The position numbers and the translations under genes were made by a program. 22,317 bases of DNA from an uncultured Elusimicrobia bacterium (GTDB taxonomy: Bacteria > Elusimicrobiota > Elusimicrobia > JACQPE01). The notes below the pieces were generated by a model, which was not told where the DNA came from, searched no databases, and saw nothing but the letters and a program-made list of their open reading frames with translations. The stretch covers positions 1 through 22,317 of the forward strand of contig CAYHKQ010000042.1 in assembly GCA_964357255.1 (NCBI GenBank), in the 5' to 3' direction. Shown here in pieces: positions 1-20,214 of this stretch (positions are counted from its first letter, which is position 1; each line of letters begins with the position of its first letter).

Positions 1-3000
1 TCCAGGGTTGTTTCGCCTTCTCCTATCCCCAGGGCCTGAATGTAGGGGATAAATTCGGCCATGGCCTTGGTCCGATAGAACGCGGCCTCGACTCCGGACG
101 TCGCGTCAATGGCGGCCAAAGAGGCGGTGACGCTACTGATGTAGAAATTATTTAAGCCCATCACGCCTTTTAATGAAAGGTTTGATTGAGGAGGCGTGGC
201 ATCGAATATGAAGTGGGCAGGGTAGAGATTTTCTTCCTGGACGCCCTGGGAATCTTTGGCACGGGAAACCGCCGAGTAGAGGCCGTCGTTTAAGGTTGCG
301 CTCTCTAGCGCCAAGGTCCAGGTTTCCTTGCCAAGGGCCGTGAGCCAGTTTATTCCTCCCCATCCGCCGCTGGTCCAGATGCTTGGCGTTGAGCTTGAGC
401 TTTGAATTTGAATTTCTACCAGGGAGATTGCCGTGCCCTTGCCTTGGGCGGTTCCGGAGATGGCAGGCAGGGTTTTGACGACGCCGTTTTCCAGGGGCCA
501 GAGAATTTTGGAGACGGGCGCGATACTGCTGAAGATGAAGGCGCGTTTGGCCCGGCTCATGCTCACGGACACTGCACCCTCGGAGTTTTTCGTTGTCTTG
601 ACGGCTTGGAGATAATAGGTGGCTCCCAGTTTAAGCGTGGCCGTGGCCATGCCGATGTCGAGAGGATTAATCACGGCGCTCGATCCCGTGAAATTTTCAA
701 TAGTTTTTTCCGCCACCGGGCCCGAGGATGGTTGGTTAAAAAATTTAAAGTTCATGCGTCCGCTTTGGTTCTCGAGAGGTCCGGTCCACGCGGCAATCGG
801 GGGAGCGCCTTTGACCCAGGCAATATCGAGCGGCCCGGCCTGGACCAGGCTTTTGCTCACGGTGGGGTCCCCCAGCGAGCCGTTGATGCTTACGGACACG
901 ACATAGGCCTTGCTAACGCCTATGGGCCAGTCCATTGAGGAGCGGCGGCGAGCGTACGTTAAACGCCCTTTCGCGTCTTTTGTGACGCGAATGGTTTCAG
1001 CGGGAGCGTTTTCCTCCAGCGTTCCTGAAAATCCAACCGGGATTTCCCGCGCGAGCCGCCAGGCTGTGGCGCCGGGATCGAGGCAATAGACGCGGTAGGA
1101 TCCAATCAGCGCCGTATCTTCAAGGGCTTGCCAGCTCAAATTCATTTCAAGCTCGTCCTTGTCGGTCCAATTCCAGGCTGAGGTGAAATTTTGCGGCGAG
1201 GGCGGCTTGGTGGAACTGATGAAGAATTTTGTCGTCATCGTGGACCAGTTATAGGCCTTATCAATGGCGTATGTTAGAACCTCGTAATGATGCCCCGGAA
1301 TCCACGCCGGCGTCTCCAGGGTCCAGGCGTTTCCCGTGAGCGCGGGTTTGATGTAGGCGTAATGGGATTGCCAATTGCTTCCGCTCCAGATTTGGGAGTT
1401 GTCGAGATCCTTGATGATGAAATACATGTACCAGAGACCGGCCAAATTATCCGTGATGTTGCCGGACAATGAGATTTGATTGTAATAGGTGGCGCCGTTT
1501 TTTGGGAGATCAAAAGTGACGTTCGGCCCGTTATTGTCCGCTGTAAAGGAAACGCTTGGGACCGGGTTTTGAACATTTTCGGAACTGTCTATGGCCCGGA
1601 CTTTGAGTTCGTAGGATTTTGCGCTCTCAAGGGTCACGGTCGAGATGCTATGTTGCCAATAACCGTAAAAGCTGTCATAGGCGGAAGTGATGGATTTGAT
1701 GGTTTGCGCGTTAAACCAGTTCGCCGAGGCTTGCCATCCCGATGGCCCCCAAGACAATCCGCCGGAGTTTTCTTTGATGGACATTTGGATTTTTGCCACG
1801 TCTTGGGGCTGGAAATTTCCGCCTAGAGGCGTGTTTTTGCCGATGATCTGATTGGGCATGGGCGTGCCGATGGTCGCGGTGGGCAGGGTTACGTCGTAAA
1901 CGCTAAATGCATTAGGCGCGGCCAGGGAGCCGGGGGTCTGCCCGGTGGGGGGGTAATTGCCGGCCTCATCCGTTGCGTCAATGAAGTAGTTGACTTTTTT
2001 GGTTTTTAAGCTTTGCAAATAGTAACCTGGAATCAACGCTCGGAATTTTGCGTTTCCGAGCGCGAACATCGGGATGGTGTAGTATTTTGACGTTCCATCC
2101 TGCCAGAAGGTGAGTCCCGCGATGGCGACTGAGGCATTGTCCGTGATTTTGGCTTCGATGATTAAATTTTTATTGTCCGCCACGGTCGCGGCCATTGGCG
2201 TATGGCTTATGTGGGGCGGCTCAAGATCGGATTTGACCAGAAATTGATCCGCTTGGGCGTCGGCATAAACTCCGGTATGCGCTGGATTGGCCCGGAACAT
2301 GGGCCAGGGGCGCGAGAAGGGCGGCACATTGGACAGCGTGTCCTTGACGCTCCAGAACCGGTCGCCTCTCATGCTATTGATGTCGCCGAAGCGGTCCTGG
2401 AAGAAAATTTCAAGTTTTCCATCGCCGTCAACATCGCCCACAACGGGCGAGGAAACCGATGTGTAAGAACCCTTGAAGGAATCAAGGAAGGCGCCATTGT
2501 CGCCTTGAAGGAGCGTGAGATATCCCGCGAAGGTGATGATATAGACGTCGAGGCGTGGTCCAGGGCCGCGCGCGGCAAGGGCCGGGGAACTGTAAATCGG
2601 GGAACCTAAATCCCTGCTCCATTTGAGCGAGCCATCGCTGTTGAGACAGTAGACTTTGCCGTCCCCTGAGCCGAACACGATTTCCGGTTTGCCGTCGCCG
2701 TCCGTGTCGCCGATAGCCGGGGAGGAAATAATAGAGCCGCCGGTGGCGAAACTCCAGCGCGTTGCCCCTGTGGCGCCGTCTAAGGCCAGGAGCGTTCCGC
2801 TGGAAATCCATGGGGTTCCAATGATGACTTCCCGGCGCCCATCGCCGTTTAAATCAGCCAGCGCGGCCGAGGCGCGCAGGGACTCGCCGGCGTTGACTTT
2901 CCATTTAAAGGCCCCGGTGCTAGCGCCCAGGCAATAAAGATAGCCGTCATCCGAGCCGATCAACACTTCCTTAGCGCCGTCGCCGTCCGTGTCGCCAATG

Positions 3001-3653
3001 GCCGCGGTGGACCAGATGGGTCCGCGCGTGACAAAACGCCAGGCGATTTGGCCGGTGGCGCCGCGAAAACTCTTGACGGAATAATCAAACGATCCGGCGA
3101 AAACCCGCCATTCGTTATTGCCCATGCGAGCCGTGGCCGGCGTGGACAGGACATGGCCGTTATAAGGGTTGGCCCAGACCCATTGAGAGAAAGGATGGAT
3201 GGCCTGAACCTCGTTGCCGGACGTGGTGCCCCCGATGATTTCGGATGTTCCGTCGCCGTTTAAGTCCGCGAGATTGATTGAGGAGTGAGCCTCGTCGTTT
3301 TCAGTGTCTTTCCACCAGATGACGTCCCCTTTGGAGGAAAACAAGAACCATCGGCCGAGCGGCCCGTCGGATGTGGTATCGCCTAAGGGATGGTATTCTT
3401 CATTGCCCGTGGCGACTTCCAGGCCCGGGTAATCCGGCCGCAATTCGCCGATCGCCGCGGATGGCCCGGGAATCATGCGGTAGTCGCCGCCGAAGACGAT
3501 TTTGAATTGGTAGTTCCAGTTATTGACAAGGATATTGTTGTAGGTGGCGCCGGTGGAGACGAGCGCTAAAAGGGGGGAGCGGTTGGGCAGATAAGCGCTT
3601 AGGCAGATCAGTGAAATAAGGAAATTCCTTAAAACACTCGACCGCTTATTCAT
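1..3653 (-). CDS. Very large secreted surface protein, >1,217 aa inside the window and still open at window start. It has an N-terminal signal peptide (MNKRSSVLRNFLISLICLSAYLP...). At least five FG-GAP/VCBS-like Ca-binding beta-propeller repeats follow (D-x-[DN]-G-D-G-x-x-E with Y-C-L blade ends). Several Ig-like/Fn3-like beta-sandwich repeats come after them. The 3' end lies beyond the window.
   Basis: I translated the minus strand by hand from the ATG at 3653..3651. The frame with codon tops at positions congruent to 2 mod 3 reads stop-free to position 1. Examples of the repeats are IGDTDGDGAKEVLIGSDDGYLYCL, LADLNGDGRREVIIGT, AIGDTDGDGKPEIVFGSGDGKVYCL and VVGDVDGDGKLEIFF. The supplied ORF track shows no ORF in this frame and no other ORF longer than 178 aa anywhere in 1..3650. 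That fits a start-to-stop finder skipping an ORF that has no stop. The ATG overlaps the upstream gene's stop (ATGA). Confidence 0.75.
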   Translation of the reverse strand, partial: MNKRSSVLRNFLISLICLSAYLPNRSPLLALVSTGATYNNILVNNWNYQFKIVFGGDYRMIPGPSAAIGELRPDYPGLEVATGNEEYHPLGDTTSDGPLGRWFLFSSKGDVIWWKDTENDEAHSSINLADLNGDGTSEIIGGTTSGNEVQAIHPFSQWVWANPYNGHVLSTPATARMGNNEWRVFAGSFDYSVKSFRGATGQIAWRFVTRGPIWSTAAIGDTDGDGAKEVLIGSDDGYLYCLGASTGAFKWKVNAGESLRASAALADLNGDGRREVIIGTPWISSGTLLALDGATGATRWSFATGGSIISSPAIGDTDGDGKPEIVFGSGDGKVYCLNSDGSLKWSRDLGSPIYSSPALAARGPGPRLDVYIITFAGYLTLLQGDNGAFLDSFKGSYTSVSSPVVGDVDGDGKLEIFFQDRFGDINSMRGDRFWSVKDTLSNVPPFSRPWPMFRANPAHTGVYADAQADQFLVKSDLEPPHISHTPMAATVADNKNLIIEAKITDNASVAIAGLTFWQDGTSKYYTIPMFALGNAKFRALIPGYYLQSLKTKKVNYFIDATDEAGNYPPTGQTPGSLAAPNAFSVYDVTLPTATIGTPMPNQIIGKNTPLGGNFQPQDVAKIQMSIKENSGGLSWGPSGWQASANWFNAQTIKSITSAYDSFYGYWQHSISTVTLESAKSYELKVRAIDSSENVQNPVPSVSFTADNNGPNVTFDLPKNGATYYNQISLSGNITDNLAGLWYMYFIIKDLDNSQIWSGSNWQSHYAYIKPALTGNAWTLETPAWIPGHHYEVLTYAIDKAYNWSTMTTKFFISSTKPPSPQNFTSAWNWTDKDELEMNLSWQALEDTALIGSYRVYCLDPGATAWRLAREIPVGFSGTLEENAPAETIRVTKDAKGRLTYARRRSSMDWPIGVSKAYVVSVSINGSLGDPTVSKSLVQAGPLDIAWVKGAPPIAAWTGPLENQSGRMNFKFFNQPSSGPVAEKTIENFTGSSAVINPLDIGMATATLKLGATYYLQAVKTTKNSEGAVSVSMSRAKRAFIFSSIAPVSKILWPLENGVVKTLPAISGTAQGKGTAISLVEIQIQSSSSTPSIWTSGGWGGINWLTALGKETWTLALESATLNDGLYSAVSRAKDSQGVQEENLYPAHFIFDATPPQSNLSLKGVMGLNNFYISSVTASLAAIDATSGVEAAFYRTKAMAEFIPYIQALGIGEGETTL

Positions 3654-4228
3654 AGTTTTTGCCCTTGTTTTTCCGGTCCGTTTTTTTTGTTTTGATCGGG
3701 TTGGGGCGAGCGCAGGAGCTTGTCCTTGCTCATGCGGTCAATTTCGAGTTCGAGTTTATGCTCTTTAAAAAATCGCCTTTCTTTTCTTGTGCCTCGGTCG
3801 TTAAGGCCGGGGATGCTATCCTCGATCAATTCCTCAAGAGCGTGAATGGCCGGGTCCGCGTCGCCATGATATTCGGCTTCTTCTTGCGGCGAAGCCTCGG
3901 CTTGCATGGCATCGAGGAGATCGAGGGCCGGGGTCGCGGCCTTGGACTTGTCCGTTTCGATTTTGCCGCCTTGATTTTCGACCCAAAGCTCTAAAGAGCC
4001 GTTCGCGGGCGCTCCAACCGCGGTCGCGCCGGCTGGGCTTTCTTGGGGCGAAGCGCCGGCCGGCATGATGTCTTTTTCCTGCGGGACCGTGACTTGTGGA
4101 GGGTTTTGAGCGGCTATTGGCGCGGACTCATCAAGAGCCACAACGTCCGGGCGCAGCCCAATCAACGTGAGCGATCCCAAGAAAAGAAAAAAATTTGTTT
4201 TTCGTCCTCGATTTTCAGTTTTTTCCAT
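3650..4228 (-). CDS. Acidic, Pro/Ala/Glu-rich low-complexity protein of 192 aa with an N-terminal hydrophobic signal/anchor (FFLFLGSLTLIGL) and a Lys-rich C-terminus. Hypothetical periplasmic or anchored accessory protein.
   Basis: ORF from the track. A GGGGAGA Shine-Dalgarno-like sequence sits about 8 nt upstream of the ATG at 4228. Its stop TGA (3650..3652) overlaps the ATG (3651..3653) of the giant downstream gene. It is nested between the beta-barrel gene and the giant gene on the same strand. Confidence 0.55.
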   Translation of the reverse strand: MEKTENRGRKTNFFLFLGSLTLIGLRPDVVALDESAPIAAQNPPQVTVPQEKDIMPAGASPQESPAGATAVGAPANGSLELWVENQGGKIETDKSKAATPALDLLDAMQAEASPQEEAEYHGDADPAIHALEELIEDSIPGLNDRGTRKERRFFKEHKLELEIDRMSKDKLLRSPQPDQNKKNGPEKQGQKL

Positions 4229-4242
4229 TGTGTCATTCTCCC

Positions 4243-5226
4243 CTAAAATTTAATCGTCAAATTCATTCGATGCGCATTGCCAAGAAGTCCGAACGGTTGA
4301 AACGAGTAATCCAAGCCGATAGCGCCGAGCGCTAAGCCGAATCCGGCTCCGAGTCCGCCTAAGGCCGAAGCTCCCGCGCTTTCTAATCCGTGATAGCCCA
4401 GGCGCAGGGCCAAGGGACGGCCGGAGGATTCTCCTGCGGCCGGCGCGAGTTCTACGCCAGCCGCCAGTTCGTGGGATTTTTCGCCGGGCCTCATTTTGTA
4501 ATCCGCGGCGAGGCGGATGCCGCCGAGATTGAAACCCGCTCCCAGGGCGTAAGTGAGCGGCAGTTTTGAGACCTCGTTGATGAATCGCAGGCCCGGTCCC
4601 GCGTTTTGAATGGCCGCGCCAAACGTCAGTTTTTTGTTGGCCGCCAGCATAATTCCAAAATCGCCGAAGTAGGTGGCGGCCTTGTAGCCAGCGAGGGACT
4701 CTTGAAAATAGGAAAGTTTGAATCCGGCGAGAATTCTCGGATGAATTTGCCGGGCCATGCCCAGGCTAACGGCCAAGTCGCCGGCTGAAAAGTCATCGCT
4801 CAGTCGTCCCGCGCTGTCGCGTCCCGTGAATTGTCCCATGTCCATGCGGTAGAAGCTTAACCCCAGAACGCCGGCTTTGCTAGGAAGAGCCAGCGCGGCA
4901 AATTGCATTTGAGAGCCCTCAAGCCATTCGCTGTGCATTAAGGAAAGCATGGGCCGTTTTATTCGGGCCAAGCCGGAGGGATTGTACGCGAGGGCCAGCG
5001 GGTCATTGGCCAGGGCCGTGTAGGCGCCGCCCAGGGCCGAGGGCCGGGCGCCGATGCCGGCTAAAAGGGATTCAGCGCCATTGGTTCCGGCGGCATACAG
5101 GGGCAAGGTGAATGAGGCAATAAAAGAAAGAAGAGAAGATAACCCGGCTAGAAACCGGGACTTCGTCCCTTCCTTAAAGTACGAAACGCTCGTTTCGTTT
5201 TGTGACCGTCTATTACCTAGGCTCAT
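4243..5226 (-). CDS. PorV/PorQ-like outer-membrane beta-barrel protein. The N-terminal motif GARPSALGGAYTALANDPLALAYNPSGLA resembles the PorV-family signature G-x-R-A-x-G-M-G-G-A...NPAGLA. The protein ends in a C-terminal Phe (LTIKF). The track ORF extends to 5364, but that N-terminal 46 aa are Arg-rich and lack a signal peptide. Met47 at 5226 gives an n-region plus an h-region (FLAGLSSLLSFIASFTLPLYAAG).
   Basis: Track ORF 4243..5364. Motif recognition and the alternating hydrophobic beta-strand pattern with a terminal aromatic residue. The stop TAG at 4243..4245 lies 14 nt before the next gene. The start is uncertain between 5226 and 5364. Confidence 0.65.
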   Translation of the reverse strand: MSLGNRRSQNETSVSYFKEGTKSRFLAGLSSLLSFIASFTLPLYAAGTNGAESLLAGIGARPSALGGAYTALANDPLALAYNPSGLARIKRPMLSLMHSEWLEGSQMQFAALALPSKAGVLGLSFYRMDMGQFTGRDSAGRLSDDFSAGDLAVSLGMARQIHPRILAGFKLSYFQESLAGYKAATYFGDFGIMLAANKKLTFGAAIQNAGPGLRFINEVSKLPLTYALGAGFNLGGIRLAADYKMRPGEKSHELAAGVELAPAAGESSGRPLALRLGYHGLESAGASALGGLGAGFGLALGAIGLDYSFQPFGLLGNAHRMNLTIKF

Positions 5227-5448
5227 TGGCTTGCATTCGGTTCGTCCAAGCTCGCCATCGGCAGCCAGGCTACCCGAGCGTTTACACCGGCCGCTTTGTG
5301 GGGAGTCCAAAGCGGACTGGAGTTTTGTCTGTCGGGCCCTTGGCTTCGCGCCCCTGCCTTTCAAAGATCAGGTTTGCCGTTTCGTGGCGGTCACTTTACG
5401 ACAACCATTAACTTTCACCCCAAAACGGGTTTGCGTCAAGGGGGGTCG

Positions 5449-5476
5449 GGTTGTAAAGTTGGGGGGAGGTTGTAAA
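5449..5476. promoter_or_regulatory. Direct repeat GGTTGTAAA occurring twice (5449..5457 and 5468..5476, 19 bp apart) in the divergent intergenic region. Inverted half-copies ACAACC (5401..5406) and TTACAA (5495..5500) also occur, and a TACAAT -10-like hexamer lies at 5496..5501. Candidate transcription-factor operator array.
   Basis: Read directly from the sequence. The region lies between divergently oriented gene starts, about 5226 or 5364 on the minus strand and 5514 on the plus strand. Confidence 0.3.
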
Positions 5477-5513
5477 TTTGTCCGTATATATTTCTTACAA
5501 TGAATAGACACCG

Positions 5514-5759
5514 ATGAATGAAGAAAAGAACGGATGGATTAAAAAAATCTTGGGCGTCAACGGCCATGATGAAGAGCCTTCGCATGTGAGCGGCAACGGG
5601 GGGTTTAAAACAACGGATAAAGCTATAGCGACGGCCCTTGTTTTTGTGATTGCCTTGATTTTAATGTTGCGCTTTAAAAATCCTGAGTTGGGATTGATTC
5701 TGGGCGCCGTGGCCGTGGGCGTCACCGTCTTCATCTGGAAAAATCATAGGAGGGGCTGA
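5514..5759 (+). CDS. Small membrane protein of 81 aa. It has a soluble N-terminus followed by two predicted TM helices (IATALVFVIALILML and LGLILGAVAVGVTVFIW). Probable partner of the downstream SPFH protein.
   Basis: Track ORF. Its stop TGA overlaps the downstream ATG (TGATG at 5757..5761). Confidence 0.6.
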   Translation: MNEEKNGWIKKILGVNGHDEEPSHVSGNGGFKTTDKAIATALVFVIALILMLRFKNPELGLILGAVAVGVTVFIWKNHRRG

Positions 5760-6676
5760 TGTATTTTGCAATTGCCGCCATTATTGCCGCTGTTCTTTTA
5801 ATTCTTAAAAAAGAGCAATGGCTTGACGTGAGACATGGGATTCTTTGGAATCAATTTTCGGTTTTTTTGTTTCGCTACGCGGCGATTTTATTCATACTAG
5901 CGTTGGCGGGCACGATAGCCGATGACGCTGTTGTCGTTGTGCCCGCCGGCCAGAGGGGCGTGGTTTATGACATTCTAAGGAAGGGGGTTCGTCCGGTGCC
6001 ATTGGGCGAAGGGTTTAATTTTATCACCCCTTTTGTCCAGCAAATTACATTAATGGACGTGCGCGTGCAAAAAGACACTTATGACGCCACCGCCCAGTCC
6101 AAAGATTTGCAAACCGTCCATGCCAAGGTCGCCTTAAACTTTCATCCCATTCCCAGTGAAACGCCGGCTATTTACCGTGATTTCGGTTTGGGGTATTCGG
6201 AAAAAGTGGTCAGTCCCGCTGTCCACGAAGCCTTAAAGCAGGTAACGGCGAAATTCACCGCTGAAGAGTTAATCACCAAGCGCGATGATGTCAAAAGACT
6301 GATCCGCGAAGTAGTGGAGCATCAGGTCGCGTTCGCTCATATTAAAGTGCAAGAGCTCTACATCACTGATTTCGATTTTTCGCGGTTATTTGCGGAATCC
6401 ATCGAATCCAAGCAGATTGCTGAACAGCAGGCGCTCAAGGCTAAGCGCGATCTCGATAGGATCAGGGTGGAAGCCGAGCAAAAAATAGCCACGTCTCGCG
6501 CCGAGGCCGAGGCCTTGCGGATGCAACGAGAGGCTGTTTCCCCGCAACTCATTCAACTCAGACAAGTTGAGGTTCAGAAACTGGCCGTGGACAAATGGAA
6601 CGGCCAAATGCCTCAAATCATCCTAGGCAACGGTTCCATGCCGCTGTTGGACCTAAGCTCTCTTCGATCTAAATAA
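5759..6676 (+). CDS. SPFH/band-7 prohibitin-family protein of 305 aa. It has an N-terminal TM helix and a C-terminal coiled-coil, Ala/Glu/Gln-rich segment.
   Basis: Sequence pattern VVPAGQRGVVYDILRKGVRPVPLGEGFNFITPFVQQI...DVRVQKDTYDATAQSKDLQTVHAKVALNFHP typical of the prohibitin (PHB) domain. The coiled-coil tail reads QIAEQQALKAKRDLDRIRVEAEQKIATSRAEAEALRMQREA. Confidence 0.85.
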   Translation: MYFAIAAIIAAVLLILKKEQWLDVRHGILWNQFSVFLFRYAAILFILALAGTIADDAVVVVPAGQRGVVYDILRKGVRPVPLGEGFNFITPFVQQITLMDVRVQKDTYDATAQSKDLQTVHAKVALNFHPIPSETPAIYRDFGLGYSEKVVSPAVHEALKQVTAKFTAEELITKRDDVKRLIREVVEHQVAFAHIKVQELYITDFDFSRLFAESIESKQIAEQQALKAKRDLDRIRVEAEQKIATSRAEAEALRMQREAVSPQLIQLRQVEVQKLAVDKWNGQMPQIILGNGSMPLLDLSSLRSK

Positions 6677-6696
6677 CTTTTTAGGTTTAGGATTGG

Positions 6697-6739
6697 GAAC
6701 GGCAAAGAATTAACGGAACCGTTCTTCTGATTTGCCTAA
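6697..6739 (+). terminator. Weak candidate intrinsic terminator after the SPFH operon. A 6-bp stem GAACGG...CCGTTC with a long loop is followed by a T-rich tract (TTCTGATTT).
   Basis: Inverted repeat read from the sequence. The stem is short and the loop long. Confidence 0.25.
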
Positions 6740-6766
6740 TTTAATTTAAAAATTAATCAAGAAAAC

Positions 6767-7234
6767 GTGATAGATTTTCATTTTCGCACGGCCTCCAATC
6801 AAGATGGGATGGCGGTGATCGCGCTGGTTTCGCGTCTCTTACAAGAGCACGGCCTGCGCTATGATTCAATGGCCGAGGATGCCGACCTCGACGACATTGA
6901 GAAGGTTTATCTGAGATCGGGCGGCGCTTTCAAAGTGGTGGAGAACTCAAAGGGCGAAATTGTGGGCACCTTCGCGCTTTATCCGATGCAGGACAGCGCC
7001 TGCCAACTTAGGAAGATGTATCTTAGTCCAATCCTACGCGGGCAAGGCCTGGGTCTGCGCATGCTCCGGTGCGCCGTTGATGACGCCCGGGGACTGGGGT
7101 TCAAAAAAATAGTTTTGGAGACCGCCAACGTCCTAAAGAAAGCGATCCGCCTGTATACTCGGTTCGGTTTCAAACCAATGGATGGCGCGCCACACTCAAA
7201 GCGCTGTGATCAGGCGTACTTTCTGGATTTATAA
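6767..7234 (+). CDS. GNAT-family N-acetyltransferase of 155 aa, with a GTG start.
   Basis: Acetyl-CoA-binding motif A QLRKMYLSPILRGQGLGLRMLRCAVDDARGLGFKKIVLETAN and a C-terminal RLYTRFGF segment typical of GNAT. Confidence 0.8.
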   Translation: MIDFHFRTASNQDGMAVIALVSRLLQEHGLRYDSMAEDADLDDIEKVYLRSGGAFKVVENSKGEIVGTFALYPMQDSACQLRKMYLSPILRGQGLGLRMLRCAVDDARGLGFKKIVLETANVLKKAIRLYTRFGFKPMDGAPHSKRCDQAYFLDL

Positions 7235-7302
7235 AATTCAACGGAATGGAAGAAAATAAAATCGGCTTTCGCGAAGTCCAAATAATCGGCATGGGTGTAA
7301 TA

Positions 7303-8574
7303 TCAGATGCGCCGGTCCACTCGGCCGGTTTTTTTTCGGCCCAGGCCGAGGGCGTCGTGAAGGGTTCGCAGGGCGTCGAGGCCTTGGCGCTCGGCGATCA
7401 CACAGGCGATTTTGATGTCGGAAGCGGAAATCATTTGGATATTGATGCGCCGGCGGGCCAGGGTGTCGAAAACTTTAGCCGCGATCACCGAGTCATTTTT
7501 GAGACCTGCGCCGATAACGGAAATTTTGGCGCAGGACTCATCCACATCGATGCGCCCGGCGCCGATTTCGCGCCCGGCGCGCTTTAGGGCCGCCTGCGCC
7601 GCTTGACTCGCGGCGCGTTCGACCATGATTGAGATGTGATTGGTCCCATCGGTCAGGGCCGCGGACTGCACGATCATGTCGAGCGCAATGGCGTCTTTGG
7701 CCAGCTCGCGCAATATGATCGCGGCGACGCCCGGTTTGTCCGGCGCTTTTTGGATGGTAATTTTGGCGAGGCTTTTATTAAGAGCCACGCCTGAGATGAG
7801 GGGAGCTTCCATGGCGGAGCTTTTAGTTTTAGATGACGATTTCATGATCCACGTGCCCTCCTGATTGTTAAAACTGCATTTGACGCAGATGGGAACATTG
7901 TAGCGTTTGGCCATTTCAATGGAACGGGACTGCATGACCTGAGCGCCGGCTCCGGCGAGTTCGAGCATCTCGTCATACGAGAGGCGCTCAACTCGCCGCG
8001 CCCAAGGGACAAGGCGCGGATCCGCGGTATACACGCCTTCGACGTCCGTGTAAATTTCAGCGGCCCGGGCGCCCAGCGCCGCGGCCAGGGCCACCGCGGT
8101 CAAATCCGAGCCGCCTCGGCCCAAGGTCGTGATTTCGCCCTCGGCGTTCATGCCCTGGAATCCGGCCACGACGACTACTTTACGATGACCCAGACATTCC
8201 AGAATTTTTTTGGGTTTGATGCCTACGATTTTGGCCGTGGTGAACGAATTTGTGGATAGGATTCCGGCTTGGCCGCCGGTGAGCGAGACGGACATCGCGC
8301 CTTGGGATTTCAGAGCAATCGCAAACAGGGCGATGCTGATTTGCTCGCCCGTGGCCAAGAGCATATCCATTTCGCGCCGGTCCGGCTCGGGGCTGATGTT
8401 GCGGGCCAAATCTACGAGCTCATCCGTCATTTCTCCCGGCGCCGAAACCACGACCACGACGTCAAGGCCCTGTTTCTTGGCTTTGATAACTTTTTTTGCC
8501 GAGGACAGAATCCGCTCGGGATTGGCGACCGAAGTGCCGCCGAATTTCATGACAACGAGTTTTTTAACGGACAT
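7303..8574 (-). CDS. lysC: Aspartate kinase of 423 aa with C-terminal ACT regulatory domains.
   Basis: N-terminal MKFGGTSV... kinase motif. The pattern ...GRGGSDLTAVALAAALGA...YTDVEGVYTADPR is typical of aspartokinase. Its start overlaps the end of hom (8564..8574). Confidence 0.93.
   Translation of the reverse strand: MSVKKLVVMKFGGTSVANPERILSSAKKVIKAKKQGLDVVVVVSAPGEMTDELVDLARNISPEPDRREMDMLLATGEQISIALFAIALKSQGAMSVSLTGGQAGILSTNSFTTAKIVGIKPKKILECLGHRKVVVVAGFQGMNAEGEITTLGRGGSDLTAVALAAALGARAAEIYTDVEGVYTADPRLVPWARRVERLSYDEMLELAGAGAQVMQSRSIEMAKRYNVPICVKCSFNNQEGTWIMKSSSKTKSSAMEAPLISGVALNKSLAKITIQKAPDKPGVAAIILRELAKDAIALDMIVQSAALTDGTNHISIMVERAASQAAQAALKRAGREIGAGRIDVDESCAKISVIGAGLKNDSVIAAKVFDTLARRRINIQMISASDIKIACVIAERQGLDALRTLHDALGLGRKKTGRVDRRI
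7312..7336 (+). terminator. Candidate intrinsic terminator for the plus-strand GNAT gene. A 6-bp GC-rich stem (CCGGTC / GGCCGG, one G-U pair) with a 5-nt loop is followed by T8. It lies inside the 3' coding end of convergent lysC.
   Basis: The hairpin and T8 run are read directly. The same bases encode the lysC C-terminus (...GRKKTGRVDRRI). Confidence 0.35.
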
Positions 8575-9913
8575 CGCCCTCGAATCTCAAGCGAGACGCG
8601 ATTTGCACATCGGAGCCGAGGCCTTTGAAGCGAGTCAGCGCTTGGCGCATTGCGCGTTCTTTGGCGCGATGAGTCACGAGGATAATCGTCGCCCGGCCTG
8701 GTTTTGGCGTCAAGGCTCTCACCGGTCCTTGATGGACTTGGGCGATCGAGATTTCAGCTCGAGCCATGACTTGGGCTATTTTTGCCAAGACACCGGGCCG
8801 ATCCTTGGCATCCAGCCTTAAGTAATAAGAGGAAGAGACCTCATCCATAGGCTTGACCTTTGGGCGCTGTTCGGATGACGCGGCGTTCGTTGCCGGACGG
8901 GAGTCAAGGAGGCGTTTGGCCGCGTCCGCTAAATCGCTTAAGACCGCATTGGCCGCGGGCAGGGCGCCGGCCCCCTTGCCTTGGAAGTATAAATCCCCGG
9001 CCCGGTCGGTTTTGAGCCAGATGGCATTGTACTCGTCATGAACCGTGGCAAAAGGGTGTTTCGTGGGAATCAGGCAAGGATGGACGCGGAAATCCAGCTG
9101 GCCGTTGTCCTCGCGGCGAAAGAGGCCGAGCAAGCGGCAGGTGCGGCCCAAATGCTGCTGGGCGAAGAGGATGTCCGCGGTGTTAAGTCCGCTAATTCCC
9201 TCGATATGGGCCAGTCGCGGAGCCACCCAGGAGCCGCTTATTAAGGAAGCTAAAATAGAGAGCTTGTGAGCCGTGTCAATTCCTTCGATATCGAGCGTGG
9301 GTTTAGCCTCGGCTAATCCCAGGGCTTGGGCTTTTTTGAGCGCTTCGCCATAGCTTAATCCTTCATGAATCATCCGCGTCAAGATGAAATTCGTCGTGCC
9401 GTTTAATATGCCTTGAAGGGCCATGATTTTTGAGGAAGCCAGGCCTTCCCGGATCGAGCGGATAATGGGAATGGCGCTTGCCACGGACGCTTCGTAATAA
9501 ATCGCGCGGTTGTGTTCGCGGGAGGCCTGATGGATTTCCTCCCAGCAGGTCGCCAGGAGCAGTTTATTGGCGGTGATGACGTCTTTGGAATTAGCCAGGG
9601 CTTCAAGAATCAGTCGCCGCGCGTCTTCCAAGCCGCCGATAAGCTCGACGACGATATTAACCCGATTGTCCTTGAGCATCGGGCCAAAGTCCCGGGCGAC
9701 TTGGGTTTGGGACGAAATTCGTAATTTCGTTGTTTTGTTTCGCGGGTGCCGGTCAATGAGCCAAAGCAATCTGATTTTGGCGCCCAGGATTGCCTCCATG
9801 CGTCGGCGGCGTTCCTCAAAAAGTTGGCAAGTTGCCCGACCCACATGACCCAGGCCAACCAAGGCAATACCGACGGACAGGGAATTCATTGATGAGAGTT
9901 TACCTAACTCCAT
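8564..9913 (-). CDS. hom: Homoserine dehydrogenase with a C-terminal ACT domain. The likely true start is Met9 at 9889 (MNSLSVGIALVGLGHVG... gives a near-N-terminal GxGxxG NAD(P)-binding motif).
   Basis: GLGHVG Rossmann motif and the substrate-domain pattern NGTTNFILT...GLAEAKPTLDIEGIDTAHKL. The C-terminal ACT-like segment reads YYLRLDAKDRPGVLAKIAQV. It forms an operon with lysC, overlapping it by 11 nt. Confidence 0.9.
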   Translation of the reverse strand: MELGKLSSMNSLSVGIALVGLGHVGRATCQLFEERRRRMEAILGAKIRLLWLIDRHPRNKTTKLRISSQTQVARDFGPMLKDNRVNIVVELIGGLEDARRLILEALANSKDVITANKLLLATCWEEIHQASREHNRAIYYEASVASAIPIIRSIREGLASSKIMALQGILNGTTNFILTRMIHEGLSYGEALKKAQALGLAEAKPTLDIEGIDTAHKLSILASLISGSWVAPRLAHIEGISGLNTADILFAQQHLGRTCRLLGLFRREDNGQLDFRVHPCLIPTKHPFATVHDEYNAIWLKTDRAGDLYFQGKGAGALPAANAVLSDLADAAKRLLDSRPATNAASSEQRPKVKPMDEVSSSYYLRLDAKDRPGVLAKIAQVMARAEISIAQVHQGPVRALTPKPGRATIILVTHRAKERAMRQALTRFKGLGSDVQIASRLRFEGDVR

Positions 9914-10003
9914 GCCCCGTGTGAAATTTTACTCTTGATTGCAGGACTTTTTACTGGTAGACTTAATGCGTAGGGCGGTTGTCTTTGCCTGTAGGGAGGA
10001 AAC

Positions 10004-10633
10004 ATGAATTTGTTGCTATTTTTTTTGGCGGGCGCTTTGAGCGCGTCGCCGACCGCGCGTCTTGAGGTCGGCAAGGGAACGGTTCATTTGATGCGCGCGG
10101 GATCATCGGTTTGGTTGCCGATTGAAACAAACACGGAAGTGTTGCAAGGCGATAAGTTGAGAACCTATGCCGATACCAAGGCGATTTTAATTTTGGCCGA
10201 CAGCTCGACGGTCGAACTGCATCCTTGGAGCTTATTGCAGATTGACAGCCTCGATAGTCAGGGTCAGAATTTTCGTCTTGATATGGGTAGCGTTCGCTCG
10301 AGGGTGGCCAAGTTCATGAGGCGTTTTCAAGTAGCGACCCCTGTGTCTGTTTGCGCGGCGCGCGGAACGGATTACAATGTGGCCGTTGACCCCGACCAGC
10401 AGGGCAAGACCAGCGTCAGCGTCGCGGAAGGCAAGGTTTCGGTCAAGGACGACAAGGGCGGGGAGGTCTTATTGGCCAAGGGCGATTCGGTGATTGTTTT
10501 GGCCGAAGGATTGCAGACCCCGGCGCGTTCCTCGCCGTCCGAGGAGTCCGAGTCGCCGCCCCGGCGCCGGCGATTGTTTTACAGCGTGATGGGCGCGTTT
10601 GTTTTTATCGCGGTTGCGTTGGTTGCGATTTAG
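10004..10633 (+). CDS. FecR-domain protein of 209 aa with an N-terminal signal peptide and a C-terminal TM anchor (RRRRLFYSVMGAFVFIAVALVAI). It has no N-terminal anti-sigma domain.
   Basis: Two FecR-like beta segments (LEVGKGTVHLMRAGSSVWLPIETNTEVLQGDKLRTYADTKAILILADSSTVELHPWSLLQID, and ATPVSVCAARGTDYNVAVD...VSVAEGKVSV). A GGGAGGA Shine-Dalgarno-like sequence sits 4 nt before the ATG. Confidence 0.6.
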   Translation: MNLLLFFLAGALSASPTARLEVGKGTVHLMRAGSSVWLPIETNTEVLQGDKLRTYADTKAILILADSSTVELHPWSLLQIDSLDSQGQNFRLDMGSVRSRVAKFMRRFQVATPVSVCAARGTDYNVAVDPDQQGKTSVSVAEGKVSVKDDKGGEVLLAKGDSVIVLAEGLQTPARSSPSEESESPPRRRRLFYSVMGAFVFIAVALVAI

Positions 10634-10634
10634 T

Positions 10635-10778
10635 GAAAGCTCGTAACTACCCAGGTCCCCTTGGATTCGTCATACCGGCGAAAGCCGGTATCCAGTGAAG
10701 GCAAATCCAAAGAAGGCCTGGATTCCGGCTTTCGCCGGAATGACGGGGAAGGGGAACCTGAGTAGTTACGAAAGCTCG
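10635..10778. mobile_element. MITE-like palindromic element, about 126 bp core (10644..10769), flanked by a 9-bp direct repeat GAAAGCTCG (10635..10643 and 10770..10778), a putative target-site duplication. Terminal inverted repeats are GTAACTACCCAGGTCCCC and GGGGAACCTGAGTAGTTAC. Internal twin hairpins are TACCGGC-GAAA-GCCGGTA (GNRA tetraloop) and TTCCGGC-TTTC-GCCGGAA.
   Basis: Read from the sequence. It starts 1 nt after the FecR-gene stop. Translating across it gives the spurious N-terminus WIPAFAGMTG of track ORF 10695..11189, a peptide signature I recognise from repeat-derived ORFs in other genomes. Confidence 0.5.
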
Positions 10779-10805
10779 ATAATTTATAATATTAGCGAGA
10801 AGCTG

Positions 10806-11189
10806 ATGATTAAAAAATTAGCAATCATGGCGTTGATCCTTGGGGTCAGCCAAGCGAGCGCTTGTTTGCTCCAATGCCAAGGCATGAGCAGCCATCAAAA
10901 TCGCCGGCCACAAACTTCATCCGCGCATCATTGCTGTCCTAATTCCAAGCGGTCCAAACAAGTTCCTTCTCACCCCGGAGCTGTTTGTTGCCTGGTAAAA
11001 TTTCAATCTCAAGATTCAACCCTGAAAGTCGCTTCGTTTCAAAAGACCGATATCGTTTGGTTGCCGCAGAGTAGCGGCCCGGATTCGGCCCAAGTGTTTC
11101 GCGGCCCGGTCTTGGAATCCGTTCTTCCTCAAAAAATTCCCAAACCTCTTGTTTGGGCTATTCGCCTTCTTCGTTCTCCTCCAGCATAA
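10806..11189 (+). CDS. Small secreted Cys/His-rich protein of 127 aa. Signal peptide MIKKLAIMALILGVSQASA, then CLLQCQG, HHCCP and AVCC motifs. Possible periplasmic metal-binding or redox protein. The track start at 10695 is an artefact of reading through the MITE.
   Basis: In-frame ATG at 10806 followed by a canonical signal peptide. Cys/His clustering. It sits between two MITE-like elements just upstream of the cus-like operon. Whether the gene is real is uncertain. Confidence 0.35.
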   Translation: MIKKLAIMALILGVSQASACLLQCQGMSSHQNRRPQTSSAHHCCPNSKRSKQVPSHPGAVCCLVKFQSQDSTLKVASFQKTDIVWLPQSSGPDSAQVFRGPVLESVLPQKIPKPLVWAIRLLRSPPA

Positions 11190-11263
11190 AAACGCTCTTG
11201 CCGTAAATCCGGCCGTTGCGTTTTATAAGAAGTTTATTGCCGGACCTTAATATTTCGTTTACT

Positions 11264-11400
11264 TGTTTACACGACTCATGCAAAATACGCCCGCTCATGG
11301 TGAGCTTGTCGAACCATGAGCCTGACCAAGGGATTGGCTCATCCTTCGACAAGCTCAGGATGAGCGGGTTCAATCAATTTGCATGACTCGTATTGTTTAT
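11264..11400. mobile_element. Second, unrelated MITE-like element (core 11271..11391). Terminal inverted repeats are ACGACTCATGCAAA and TTTGCATGACTCGT (1 mismatch). It is flanked by a direct repeat TTGTTTA (11264..11270 and 11393..11399). Internal twin hairpins have 8-bp stems (GCTCATGG/CCATGAGC and GCTCATCC/GGATGAGC) and 13-nt loops that are exact reverse complements of each other (TGAGCTTGTCGAA and TTCGACAAGCTCA).
   Basis: Read from the sequence. Translation gives the spurious ORFs 11158..11373 and 11339..11674 containing LSLSKDEP and FDKLTMSG, peptide signatures of a widespread repeat family. Confidence 0.5.
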
Positions 11401-11423
11401 CGTGAGGTCCATATGGAGGTGAA

Positions 11424-12674
11424 TTGAAGATTATTCTAGCGCCAGCGTTTGTGGTCATGCTTATTGTTCCGGCTATGGCTGAGGAGACTGTTTTCATTTC
11501 GACGGGATCCCTTACATTGAAGGAAGCCTTGGCCGAGGCCCGCGAGCGCAGTCCTGAAATTTTAGCCGCCCGTAAATTTTGGGAGGCGCTTGCGAGCAGG
11601 CCGGTTGGGGCGGCCGCGCCGGAGAATCCCCGTCTGGATATTGAAAGAATGTACGCGAGCGGCGGAAGGAACATTATAACAGGGGCCGAGGAAAAAAATT
11701 TTATGCTCAGCCAGGAGATTCCTTTCCCGGCAAAACTTCATTTGAGAAAGCGGGTGGCTTTAAAAGCCGCGGCCATGGCGGAGCAAGGGTATTTGGCCAA
11801 GATCAGGGACGTGCTGGCCCGGGTCCGTTCGATCTATGCCATGCTTTATCTTTCACACAAAAATTTGGAATTGTTTAACGAGAATATTGAGTTGTTGCGC
11901 CGTTTTGCCAAGGTGGCTGAGTCAAAATACGCGGCCGGCCGCGCGAGCCAATCGGACGTCCTTAAGGCCCACGTGGAATTGAGCAAGATGCTTAATATGC
12001 TCGTGGTTGTTAATCAGGACAAGGAGGCGGCCGGGTTCATGCTCAACGCGCTTTTGGGCAGGGCCCCGGAGTCGGCATTAGGGGTTCCGGTTGATCTTGA
12101 TTCAAAAAAATTGGACTACAGTCTCGACGAGCTTGAGCGCCAAGCCTTGCAATCGCGTCCCCAACTGCTCGAAGCGGCGCTCGGCGTGGAGCGGGCCGCC
12201 GGCGCGCTTTCATTGGCCAGATCGGAATTTTTTCCTGATTTCATGCTTCAATACCGCCAGCGCCGCGATTCTATGCGTGGAAGTTCTCAGGACGCGATGA
12301 TTGGATTTACGATCCCTCTTTGGTTTTGGAAGCCCGCGGCCATGGCGGCCGAGGCCAAGTCGGAGTTGCAAATGTTTCAGGCCCAACTGCAGGCCACCAG
12401 GCTCATGACCCTGTCCGAGGTCCGCGCTTCCTTTGTCCGGGCCCGGACAAGCCAGCGCCTGATTGAACTTTATCGCAACGGCGTCTTGGCGCAGGCCGAG
12501 GGGGCGCTTAAAGTGGTTGAGGCGAGTTATCAGGCCGATAAGGCGAGTTTTCTGGACTTGGTGGACGGACAGCGCGCATTTTTGAATTTTAAGCTCGAAT
12601 ACTACCAATACATCGCCGAGTACGAACAACGCCTCGCGGAGCTAGAGCGCGCTGTTGGAAAGGAGTTGCTATGA
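11424..12674 (+). CDS. cusC: Outer-membrane efflux protein of 416 aa (TolC-like outer-membrane factor, CusC/CzcC type). TTG start 4 nt after a GGAGG Shine-Dalgarno sequence, followed by a signal peptide.
   Basis: Signal peptide MKIILAPAFVVMLIVPAMA. Two repeated alpha-helical coiled-coil/beta segments typical of OEP-family proteins. Its stop overlaps the next gene's ATG (ATGA at 12671..12674). Confidence 0.8.
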   Translation: MKIILAPAFVVMLIVPAMAEETVFISTGSLTLKEALAEARERSPEILAARKFWEALASRPVGAAAPENPRLDIERMYASGGRNIITGAEEKNFMLSQEIPFPAKLHLRKRVALKAAAMAEQGYLAKIRDVLARVRSIYAMLYLSHKNLELFNENIELLRRFAKVAESKYAAGRASQSDVLKAHVELSKMLNMLVVVNQDKEAAGFMLNALLGRAPESALGVPVDLDSKKLDYSLDELERQALQSRPQLLEAALGVERAAGALSLARSEFFPDFMLQYRQRRDSMRGSSQDAMIGFTIPLWFWKPAAMAAEAKSELQMFQAQLQATRLMTLSEVRASFVRARTSQRLIELYRNGVLAQAEGALKVVEASYQADKASFLDLVDGQRAFLNFKLEYYQYIAEYEQRLAELERAVGKELL

Positions 12675-14059
12675 GAAAAAATAAACTTGTGATTTTAATC
12701 CTTGCGGTTTTTATCTTTGGAGCCGGCGGCCTGGTTGTGCGGTTTCGCCGTGGAGCAAGTCATGGCGCTGGAGTCGCCCCAGAGGCGGTCCGTTATTATT
12801 GTCCGATGCATCCTACTTATACCTCGGATCGCCCCGGCGCTTGTCCGATTTGCAACATGTCTCTTGTGCCCATGGAGACGCCGGATGCTTCCGGGGCCGC
12901 GGCTCAGAATCCTGCCGGTTCCGGAAAAAAAGTCTGCCTGCTTCACAACTGCAACATGGCCAATTGCCCCATGGAGTTAGAACTCAAACCAGGCCAAAAG
13001 GTGACATGTCCCGTATGCGGGACTCATGTAGAGGAGGCGCAAGAGCTTGCTCAAGGAAAAATTCTCTATTACCGTCATCCCGTGCGGCCGGAGCTAACGT
13101 CCCCGTCGCTCAAAAAGGATGAGATGGGAATGGATTACGTGCCTGTCTATGCCGAGAAACAAGACGTTCGGGTTCCGGTCGGGGGCCAAGCCGGCGTGAC
13201 TTTGACGGCGGAGCGCCGCCGGCTCATTGGCATGGAATCGCAGGCATTGGTAAGACGTGATTTAAAATTTACGGTCAGGGCCAGCGGCCGCGTGGCTTAT
13301 GATCCTGATCTTTACAACGCCATTGCGGAATATCGGGAGGCTGTGCGGACTAAAGAACAGGTCAAGGAGAATTCCTGGCCCGATGTCCAGGATCGTTCCC
13401 AAGCTTTAGTGAGGGCTTCCCTTTTGAGATTGAGACAGTCGGGTTTATCTGAGTCTCAAATTGAAGATATTGCCCGGAGCACGGGGGCGCAGTCAACTAA
13501 TCTCCTTTTGGGAGGTTCCGAAGAAAGCGTCTGGGTCTATGCCCAGATTTATGAGTATGAGATTGGCTTTGTCAAATCCGGCCAGAGAGCCGAAATTACA
13601 ACCCCGGCTTATCGGGGACGGAAATTTTACGGCACGGTTAAAGCGGTGGACCCTATCCTTTCCGCGGAAACCAGGTCTCTTAAAGTCCGTATCGAGGTTC
13701 CCAATCCCGAGGGGCTCTTGAAGCTGGAAATGTATGTCAACGCGGAGATCCGCGTGGACATTGGATTTAAGCTTGCCCTTCCCGAGGAGGCGCTTATGGA
13801 GACGGGCGAGCGTCAACTCGTTTTTATTGACCTTGGCCAGGGGCGCATTGAGCCAAGAGAGGTGCGCATCGGCCAAGAGGCGAAGGGTTATTATGAGGTC
13901 ATCTCCGGCATCCGCGAAGGCGAGAGGGTCGTGACATCGGCCAATTTCCTCATTGACTCCGAGTCGAAACTGAAGGCCGCCATTTCAACCTCGAAGGACA
14001 AGGCCAAGGGCAAGGGCGACTCCCAACCCGCCGATTCTTTTTCGGAACACAGGCATTGA
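12671..14059 (+). CDS. cusB: Efflux RND periplasmic adaptor (membrane-fusion protein) of the CusB/SilB type, 462 aa. N-terminal TM anchor. It has a heavy-metal-binding motif YYCPMHPTYTSDRPGACPICNMSL, an additional Cys cluster CLLHNCNMANCPMELELKPGQKVTCPVCGTHV, and the degenerate YYRHPVRP...KDEMGMDYVPVY motif. The C-terminus is His-rich (SEHRH).
   Basis: The CPMHP...CPICxM motif is characteristic of Cu(I)/Ag(I) adaptor N-domains. Beta-barrel/lipoyl-like segments follow (VKAVDPILSAETRSLKVRIEVPNPEGLLKLEMYVNAEI). Translational coupling with cusC. Confidence 0.85.
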   Translation: MRKNKLVILILAVFIFGAGGLVVRFRRGASHGAGVAPEAVRYYCPMHPTYTSDRPGACPICNMSLVPMETPDASGAAAQNPAGSGKKVCLLHNCNMANCPMELELKPGQKVTCPVCGTHVEEAQELAQGKILYYRHPVRPELTSPSLKKDEMGMDYVPVYAEKQDVRVPVGGQAGVTLTAERRRLIGMESQALVRRDLKFTVRASGRVAYDPDLYNAIAEYREAVRTKEQVKENSWPDVQDRSQALVRASLLRLRQSGLSESQIEDIARSTGAQSTNLLLGGSEESVWVYAQIYEYEIGFVKSGQRAEITTPAYRGRKFYGTVKAVDPILSAETRSLKVRIEVPNPEGLLKLEMYVNAEIRVDIGFKLALPEEALMETGERQLVFIDLGQGRIEPREVRIGQEAKGYYEVISGIREGERVVTSANFLIDSESKLKAAISTSKDKAKGKGDSQPADSFSEHRH

Positions 14060-14066
14060 GGCTTTT

Positions 14067-17357: not shown

Positions 17358-17375
17358 TCATCATGGAAATGATCT

Positions 17376-18263: not shown

Positions 18264-18297
18264 AGCTACCCATGTCGCACAGACCCGGGCGCCAACA

Positions 18298-19836: not shown

Positions 19837-19839
19837 CCT

Positions 19840-20214
19840 ATGTTCCAACTCATGAAATCAAAAACACTGCTTAGCGCAATGTTGTTAACGATGGCTCTGG
19901 GATTGGCGGCGATGGCCGCTAACGACTCATACAAGAAAAAGCCCGGCCATCACCCCGCATGCCCCATGAAAATAGAAGGGGCGGAAGTCCGCGTGGATAA
20001 TATTGAATCCGGCGTGGTGGTTCATATAACAGCCGAGGATCCGGCTGTCGTCAAAAACATTCAGGATACGGCTTCCCGAATGGTTCAACATCATTCCCAG
20101 AAAAAGGGAGGGGCTAAAAAGGAAATTTATTCCTGCCCCATGAATGACTACTCCGGATCCCAGACCAAAGATGGCCGTTGCCCTAAATGCGGCATGAATC
20201 TTGAGAAAAAGTAA
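19840..20214 (+). CDS. Small secreted protein of 124 aa with a standalone heavy-metal-binding domain. Signal peptide, N-terminal HHPACPM, and a C-terminal YSCPMNDYSGSQTKDGRCPKCGMNL (the same Y-x-CPM...G-x-CP-x-CGM-x-L motif as the CusB N-domain). Candidate periplasmic Cu(I)/Ag(I) metallochaperone.
   Basis: Motif identity with the adaptor metal-binding motif in 12671..14059. Signal peptide MFQLMKSKTLLSAMLLTMALGLAAMAA. It lies 4 nt after the His-rich gene. Confidence 0.7.
   Translation: MFQLMKSKTLLSAMLLTMALGLAAMAANDSYKKKPGHHPACPMKIEGAEVRVDNIESGVVVHITAEDPAVVKNIQDTASRMVQHHSQKKGGAKKEIYSCPMNDYSGSQTKDGRCPKCGMNLEKK

Follow-up and report, generated by a model that had tools for sequence, protein, structure and literature searches.

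A nearly gapless set of minus-strand genes, in region 1..5364 of a 22,317-nucleotide stretch of DNA from an uncultured Elusimicrobia bacterium (contig CAYHKQ010000042.1, assembly GCA_964357255.1; the whole of this stretch is hereafter referred to as the window), encodes a PorV-like outer-membrane barrel, a small middle protein and the N-terminal part of a giant cargo protein. The barrel and giant genes represent one copy of a two-gene module found across Elusimicrobiota, in which a barrel of the PorV/PorQ family adjoins a gene for a protein with a type IX secretion system (T9SS) sorting domain at its C-terminus. We consider it probable (at about 0.65) that each of these barrels is the cognate carrier or anchor for the C-terminal domain (CTD) of its neighbor, in a sorting relationship of the type IX kind. 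An earlier note on this DNA, made from the letters alone, had suggested that the PorV-like barrel was wedded to the giant cargo as a tether or export pair, and this suggestion is strongly backed by the PorV-like character of the barrel, by the near-universal co-occurrence of the two genes and by the sorting domain of the full-length cargo orthologue. The note had described the hard-wiring at this locus; the pairing does hold here, but it is a multi-copy module of the phylum.

The window barrel matched the NCBIfam model of the PorV/PorQ family (NF033709) with a score of 130.6 bits (cutoff 90), with residues 48-327 aligned to positions 1-326 of the 326 in the profile, and it carries the N-terminal signature of this family (GARPSALGGAYTALANDPLALAYNPSGLA). 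Its orthologue in L006, one of two close relatives with the same gene order (the other being L009) identified in a scan of GTDB species genomes, scored 129.1 bits. The scores obtained with the equivalog models were below the cutoff for PorQ (NF033711, the best equivalog match, 85.6 vs. 220 bits, over residues 56-233 only), PorV2 (39.3 vs. 325 bits) and PorV (NF033710, 29.8 vs. 250 bits). The only Pfam match was to UPF0164 (27 bits), with no match at E≤0.1 to Toluene_X (PF03349, FadL/OmpP1) or PorP_SprF, and no POTRA, Omp85 or ShlB domain was detected in the barrel with Pfam or NCBIfam. A profile constructed from 16 homologues and compared with the PDB identified Flavobacterium johnsoniae PorV (6h3i_F) with E = 4e-28, vs. 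1e-3 to 4e-2 for the FadL/TodX chains. The AlphaFold2 (AF2) model of the barrel (predicted local distance difference test score, pLDDT, 82.7) has 14 strands following a helical hatch segment, and the top Foldseek matches of this model were the PorV chains 8gl6_F and 6h3i_F (template-modeling, TM, score of 0.67), followed by TodX and FadL (TM 0.56-0.59). The PorV chains concerned sit inside substrate-bound T9SS translocon structures. On the basis of the hidden Markov model (HMM) scores, the PDB profile search and the fold match, the barrel is a PorV-like member of the FadL superfamily, belonging to the PorV/PorQ family, yet it is neither PorV nor PorQ. The earlier note had called it PorV-like rather than FadL/OmpP1, an assignment with which all three lines of evidence agree. 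This family identity is not new, as the NCBI annotation of the locus already reads “PorV/PorQ family protein”; one homologue is labeled as a long-chain fatty acid transport protein in its Joint Genome Institute (JGI) record.

By eye, the barrel protein consists of a signal peptide (approximately amino acids 1-46), an N-terminal hatch containing the motif YNPSGLA (approximately amino acids 48-90) and 14 beta-strands. The hatch motif, at residues 81-87, is similar to FadL's NPA motif; its residues N82 and G85 do not vary among the 16 homologues, nor does P83 among the seven closest. This pattern points to a conserved structural role of the hatch, in proteins whose presumed ligands are not lipids but other proteins. 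F. johnsoniae PorV (6H3I/8GL6) is thus the best match in terms of both sequence and fold, but the window barrel is smaller (327 amino acids, vs. 402 for the 6h3i_F chain), fails the PorV equivalog and is paired one-to-one with a cargo, whereas PorV serves all type A cargo proteins and is not encoded beside them. The 14-stranded barrel, the N-terminal hatch and the NPA-like motif are also shared with FadL/TodX and with the UPF0164 proteins of Treponema.

The giant protein has an N-terminus resembling a signal peptide. It was described in the earlier note as a propeller followed by a stack of immunoglobulin (Ig)-like domains, and this architecture is borne out by matches to FG-GAP_3 (73.5 bits), FG-GAP (67.4 bits), Beta-prop_CGLA (63.8 bits) and PQQ_2 (45 bits) for the propeller and to Big_7 (33.8 bits), the sole Ig model above the cutoff inside the window, for the Ig-like array. 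The last 45 residues in the window (amino acids 1171-1215) gave 32.1 bits with barrel_OmpL47, below the cutoff of 40, for a domain cut by the window end. In L009 (JACQPE010000028, Elusimicrobia), the barrel (398..1387), the small protein (1399..1995) and a giant protein of 2564 amino acids (1992..9686) are all present, and the two giant proteins are 51% identical and collinear over 1185 amino acids. The last 110 amino acids of the L009 giant protein gave 38.8 bits (cutoff 23) with TIGR04183, the model for type A T9SS sorting domains, and 53.7 bits with the PorZ C-terminus. The tail of the giant protein of L006 (identical to L008) likewise matched TIGR04183 (25.5 bits) and the PorZ C-terminus (51.8 bits); this orthologue is collinear with the window protein from amino acid 585 onwards and contains Big_13, Big_7 and two OmpL47-type domains (105.4 bits). 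A sorting domain had been expected at the C-terminus of the cargo, and both orthologues have one. Two frameshifts and an in-frame stop codon break up the giant gene of L006 (2032..7981) into four open reading frames (ORFs); the name of this metagenome-assembled genome (MAG) ends in “_52_3”, which may mean a coverage of about 3x, so the interruption may be an assembly error rather than a sign of a pseudogene. For the profile derived for the Elusimicrobiota sorting domain, the strongest matches were the PorU CTD (E = 5e-13) and the PorZ CTD (E = 3e-12), vs. 3e-4 or weaker for the CTDs of ordinary F. johnsoniae cargo proteins.

An alignment of seven close barrel sequences, used to scan the GTDB species genomes, yielded 346 barrel relatives. 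The locus surveys reported here cover the 1.18 Mb of DNA fetched around such barrels, in which no flank exceeds 10 kb. Most of the best 80 loci (61/80) were labeled Elusimicrobia or Elusimicrobiota, the others being labeled as unclassified “bacterium” (8), Eisenbacteria (4), Armatimonadota (2), “Clostridia” (2), Calditrichia (1), Hydrogenedentes (1) and Nitrospirota (1). Many copies were present per MAG, with eight loci and at least nine barrels in JACPOW01, six loci in JAUYSH01 and five in JAKFCD01. Among the complete Elusimicrobiota genomes, CP096137.1 (3.8 Mb) and CBDIQC010000001.1 (3.1 Mb) contain such pairs. For the sorting domain, an HMM was started from the tail of the L006 giant protein and refined in repeated rounds against every ORF C-terminus of the fetched loci; barrels were located by HMM searches of all ORFs and by HMM envelope coordinates. 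Among the 81 distinct tails collected beside related barrels, TIGR04183 was confirmed in 79 (E≤0.01), and the type B model TIGR04131 matched four.

The adjacency census covered 84 strong barrels in 80 non-duplicate genome loci. A sorting-domain gene ended directly upstream of the barrel, on the same strand and typically with a 4-nt overlap or a spacing of less than 30 nt, in 67 cases. The sorting-domain gene was located downstream for five barrels (the window clade, L010, L064 and L085) and 0.3-2 kb upstream for three, whereas six barrels lay at a contig edge, rendering them undecidable, and three (L005, L016 and L022) had no sorting-domain neighbor. The prevailing order elsewhere, cargo then barrel, is therefore opposite to that in the window. 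Overall, 72 of the 78 evaluable barrels adjoin a sorting-domain gene, and this adjacency is beyond chance, because the 1.18 Mb of DNA contains only 82 sorting-domain ORFs. The cargo of L005 is cut by the contig end, leaving L016 and L022 as the only evaluable complete barrels without a sorting-domain neighbor. These two barrels (L016, 2780..4021, labeled Nitrospirota; L022, 9863..11119, from an unclassified MAG) are PorV-family proteins with an SH3-like C-terminal extension. The cargo proteins range from 332 to 2772 amino acids in length when complete, and truncated ones exceed 3300 amino acids.

Barrel divergence and sorting-domain divergence were strongly correlated in pairwise comparisons (69 pairs, r = 0.92), with none of 2000 Mantel permutations giving as high a value. 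A common organismal phylogeny alone could give this coefficient, and the test was therefore limited to within-genome paralogues, for which r was 0.80 (54 comparisons). The barrel and cargo genes duplicate and diverge as a unit, as expected for cognate partners, although this is not proof of contact. No third gene family recurred beside the pairs: when the 2376 ORFs were clustered, only the barrel and cargo families were recurrent, the other large clusters in the flanks being antisense artefacts. The ten recurrent neighbors were BamD, NadD, PolA, a histidine kinase, a LacI-type regulator, adenosine deaminase or proteins without a match. As no other family recurs and these neighbors are housekeeping genes, the pairs sit as autonomous two-gene modules in unrelated contexts. 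Three Eisenbacteria loci (L068, L069 and L087, at about 6960..15600) share a conserved block that starts with a weak barrel match (about 45 bits) and continues with a sorting-domain protein of 563-659 amino acids, a 500-amino-acid barrel with a C-terminal extension, BamD, NadD and DNA polymerase I.

What is conserved is the barrel/cargo pair rather than the trio of barrel, middle protein and giant protein described earlier. The middle protein was found only in the window and, as orthologues, in L005, L006 and L009, each time encoded between the barrel and giant genes. A search of a database of 5.8 billion proteins returned two clusters only, and neither this search nor a metagenome scan, in which only the Hainich population was recovered, detected the protein outside the narrow clade of the window. 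It had no match in Pfam or NCBIfam. The N-terminus resembles a signal peptide, with A-x-A-type sites and no lipobox, and its hydrophobic stretch looks cleavable rather than like a membrane anchor; the center is a Pro/Ala-rich low-complexity region, and there is a conserved charged motif at the C-terminus (RGTRKE[KR]RFFKEHKLELEIDR). The AF2 model had no usable fold (pLDDT 50.7), a result compatible with disorder. The description of this protein as “acidic anchored” holds in part, since the isoelectric point is 4.95 in the window (mildly acidic), but values of 5.3 to 7.9 for the orthologues indicate that acidity is not conserved, and the protein has a signal peptide and is not obviously anchored. 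At other loci, the middle position is empty or occupied by an unrelated gene. Given this distribution and the restriction of its orthologues to a narrow clade, the middle protein is a lineage-specific accessory rather than a defining part of the system. L010 (10019..19834) also displays the order barrel, middle gene, giant cargo, with a cargo of 2352 amino acids and, in the middle, an unrelated 592-amino-acid TPR protein.

Table 1. Coordinates of the barrel/cargo locus of the window and of FecR-domain relatives found near modules at other loci.
Sequence	Feature	Position	Strand	Description
Window	Barrel gene	4243..5226	-	PorV/PorQ-family outer-membrane barrel, 327 aa
Window	Spacer	4229..4242	-	14 nt, from the barrel stop (4243..4245) to the middle-gene ATG (4228); read from sequence
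Window	Middle gene	3650..4228	-	Small secreted protein, 192 aa, clade-specific
Window	ATGA overlap	3650..3653	-	Stop/start overlap of middle-gene TGA and giant-gene ATG; read from sequence
Window	Giant cargo gene, 5' part	1..3653	-	1217 codons from ATG at 3653; exits the window at its left end
Window	Propeller region of giant protein	2274..3356	-	FG-GAP/PQQ-like beta-propeller, roughly aa 100-460
Window	Start of Ig-like array of giant protein	1..1901	-	aa 585-1217; array extends beyond the window
L084	FecR-domain relative	5795-6925		
L031	FecR-domain relative	2139-3557		
L017	FecR-domain relative	12909-13721		
L029	FecR-domain relative	17349-18983		

The three minus-strand ORFs, their coordinates, the ATGA overlap and the 14-nt spacing were all found to be as described in the earlier note (Table 1), with one amendment: the barrel ORF does reach a TTG codon at 5364, but gene callers and alignments with orthologues both favor the ATG at 5226 as the start, and gene calls on identical contigs give the 327-amino-acid protein. 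The spacer starts with GGGAGA, a Shine-Dalgarno-like sequence, and the 4-nt overlap of the middle and giant genes is also present in L009 (1399..1995 and 1992..9686). Proteins identical to those of the window were found on short contigs from Hainich groundwater metagenomes. Exact-protein look-up retrieved only shorter Hainich groundwater and Logan contigs, none of them a longer contig covering the 3' end of the cargo gene, and a metagenome scan with the middle-protein alignment recovered the same population only, without this 3' end.

The remaining genes of the window are ordinary (SPFH, GNAT, aspartate kinase, homoserine dehydrogenase, FecR-domain, a CusCBA-like efflux operon, VIT1 and NYN), with no T9SS genes among them. 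The efflux operon (11424..20214, plus strand) is of the CusC/CusB/CusA-like resistance-nodulation-division (RND) type and encodes an OEP protein, a membrane-fusion protein bearing a heavy-metal-binding domain (HMBD) and an AcrB-family pump; 3' of these genes lie two ORFs without a Pfam match (17376..18263 and 18298..19836) and a gene for a small HMBD protein (19840..20214). The FecR-domain protein (10004..10633, plus strand) has relatives near barrel/cargo modules at four other loci (Table 1), and in L084 the FecR-domain gene directly follows the barrel. The proximity of FecR-domain genes to the modules could be a coincidence or a loose association.

In the reading that we favor, the giant propeller-plus-Ig protein would reach the periplasm through its N-terminal signal peptide. 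Its predicted type-A-like C-terminal sorting domain, placed just beyond the window, would be recognized by the adjoining 14-stranded PorV/PorQ-family barrel, which would keep the cargo at the outer membrane. The barrel would then serve as both the cognate carrier and the permanent surface anchor of a single cargo, and would thereby expose an adhesin-like giant at the cell surface. The tight packing of the genes (14 nt and ATGA here, a 4-nt cargo/barrel overlap in most relatives) may ensure a roughly matched production of the partners, with the small middle protein as a probable lineage-specific periplasmic accessory. A folded giant protein cannot go through a plugged barrel of 14 strands, and the crossing of the outer membrane by the cargo would therefore presumably require an SprA-like translocon encoded elsewhere in the genome, or another route.

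Anchoring of this kind would resemble that in two groups of known systems. In Porphyromonas gingivalis, PorU remains attached to PorV, and PorZ to PorQ (PMC12365241), and, in this attachment complex, a 14-stranded barrel of the PorV/PorQ family holds a surface protein, as proposed here (PMC12365241). The cargo tails are closest to the CTDs of PorU and PorZ, and the window barrel falls into the same NCBIfam family as PorV and PorQ. Unlike those of the PorQ-PorZ and PorV-PorU complexes, the partner genes in Elusimicrobiota, a phylum distinct from Bacteroidota, are adjacent and often overlapping, and there are many paralogous pairs per genome, with diverse cargo bodies and with equivalog scores far below the cutoff, indicating that they are not orthologous. 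Type B cargo proteins depend on gene-linked cognate PorP/SprF-like shuttles, which then anchor them (PMC12618676; PMC9143113). In SprB-SprF and PG1035-PorP, as here, a giant adhesin with a C-terminal sorting domain is gene-linked to its own barrel; in these systems, the cargo needs the barrel for secretion and anchorage, and there are several specific pairs per genome (PMC12618676; PMC9143113). The pairs described here differ from the type B pairs in having barrels of the PorV/PorQ family rather than PorP_SprF, and tails that are type A in 79/81 cases and type B in 4/81. PorV binds type A CTDs via its extracellular loops (PMC10994853).

Several points weigh against this interpretation. The window itself ends before the C-terminus of the cargo, the sorting domain of which is predicted from its orthologues. 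With its 14 strands and hatch plug, the barrel is itself unable to let through a folded protein of 2500 amino acids, and core T9SS genes (SprA/Sov, PorU, GldK/L/M/N) were not seen in the flanking DNA, read up to 10 kb. The type A domains of Bacteroidota share one generic PorV rather than having cognate barrels, and the window barrel is small (about 280 mature residues), with loops shorter than those of PorV. Co-duplication alone can yield correlated divergence without physical interaction. Reviews place the T9SS in Bacteroidota or the Fibrobacteres-Chlorobi-Bacteroidetes (FCB) group (PMC11205867), and we found no literature on the T9SS, PorV or sorting domains in Elusimicrobia/Elusimicrobiota. 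The suggestion that the pair lies outside the canonical type IX context is accurate as far as the phylum and the flanking genes are concerned.

One alternative retains the docking of the sorting domain on the barrel but dispenses with the T9SS translocon and motor. The cargo would surface by another route, such as type II secretion or co-insertion with its barrel aided by BAM (the beta-barrel assembly machinery), and the PorV-family barrel and the sorting domain would constitute a self-contained surface-display module. This explanation is consistent with the absence of T9SS machinery genes from the 1.18 Mb of flanking DNA, the location of the pairs in unrelated housekeeping contexts, the position of the phylum outside the described T9SS range, on which no T9SS literature was found, and the presence of one barrel per cargo, unlike the type A pathway of Bacteroidota. 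However, absence from the flanks gives no information on other parts of the genome, pairs of a similar kind are present in MAGs of the FCB group (Eisenbacteria and Calditrichia) that may have T9SS cores, and PorV-family proteins acting without SprA have no precedent. We regard this route as possible but rather unlikely, and, with the same reserve, Elusimicrobiota and some other non-Bacteroidota lineages may have a modular, one-barrel-per-cargo display without the SprA translocon or the GldLM/PorKN motor. Even less probable is translocation of the partner by the barrel itself, with the cargo threading through unfolded, as in two-partner or autotransporter secretion. The one-to-one genetic linkage between a barrel and a repetitive, adhesin-like giant does recall TpsA/TpsB operons, but the barrel has no POTRA, Omp85 or ShlB domain, its 14 strands and internal N-terminal hatch are not those of a 16-stranded Omp85 barrel, and the element recognized is C-terminal, a folded Ig-like domain, rather than an N-terminal two-partner secretion (TPS) domain. 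We reject this mode of secretion on grounds of architecture.

The remaining alternatives concern the identity of the barrel. One is that the barrel is an orthologue of PorQ and its giant neighbor an orthologue of PorZ (or of PorV and PorU, respectively), making them parts of a single attachment complex instead of a cargo/carrier pair. In its favor, PorQ is the best equivalog match of the barrel (85.6 bits), and the cargo tails are similar to the C-terminal ends of PorZ and PorU. This orthology is largely refuted by the scores, all far below the cutoff (85.6/220 for PorQ, 29.8/250 for PorV and 51.8/260, for the tail only, for PorZ), and by the copy number, with many paralogous pairs per genome (at least nine barrels in JACPOW01), the cargo bodies of which are diverse, extending from about 330 amino acids (complete) to more than 3300; such orthology is highly improbable. 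The least credible possibility is a role of the barrel as a FadL/OmpP1-type channel through which hydrophobic compounds would pass, with the giant gene as an incidental neighbor. Its fold is that of the FadL superfamily (TM 0.56-0.59 with TodX and FadL), its hatch retains an NP[SA]G motif recalling the FadL NPA motif, and the JGI record mentioned above names a homologue as a long-chain fatty acid transport protein. Nevertheless, there is no Toluene_X match in Pfam, the sequence likeness to FadL/TodX is marginal (E of about 1e-3, vs. 4e-28 for PorV), and the genomic context is one of protein sorting rather than lipid uptake, with an adjacent sorting-domain gene for 72/78 evaluable barrels and correlated divergence. 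A channel function of this type was rejected on the basis of these scores.

The systematic one-to-one, often overlapping pairing of type-A-like cargo proteins with their own PorV-family barrels appears to be unreported in the searchable literature. The pairing is repeated many times within single genomes, in a phylum beyond the range described for the T9SS. It provides an annotation rule for Elusimicrobiota, in which a PorV-family gene flags the 3' end (occasionally the 5' end) of a surface-protein gene. In current models, type A domains share a generic PorV, only type B domains have cognate gene-linked carriers, and the system is confined to Bacteroidota and their allies; here, by contrast, dozens of type-A-like domains in another phylum are each coupled, often translationally, to their own PorV/PorQ-family barrel. 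If the T9SS machinery is present in these bacteria, the carrier specificity of type A domains would be evolvable, and the T9SS would be spread more widely among bacteria than has been stated. If the machinery is absent, the barrel and the sorting domain would constitute a minimal surface-anchoring device, possibly ancestral, which would be useful for studies of the origin of the system and for engineered display. Were cargo display to proceed without a translocon, the interaction between barrel and sorting domain would be the ancestral core of type IX sorting, to which Bacteroidota would later have added a powered translocon.

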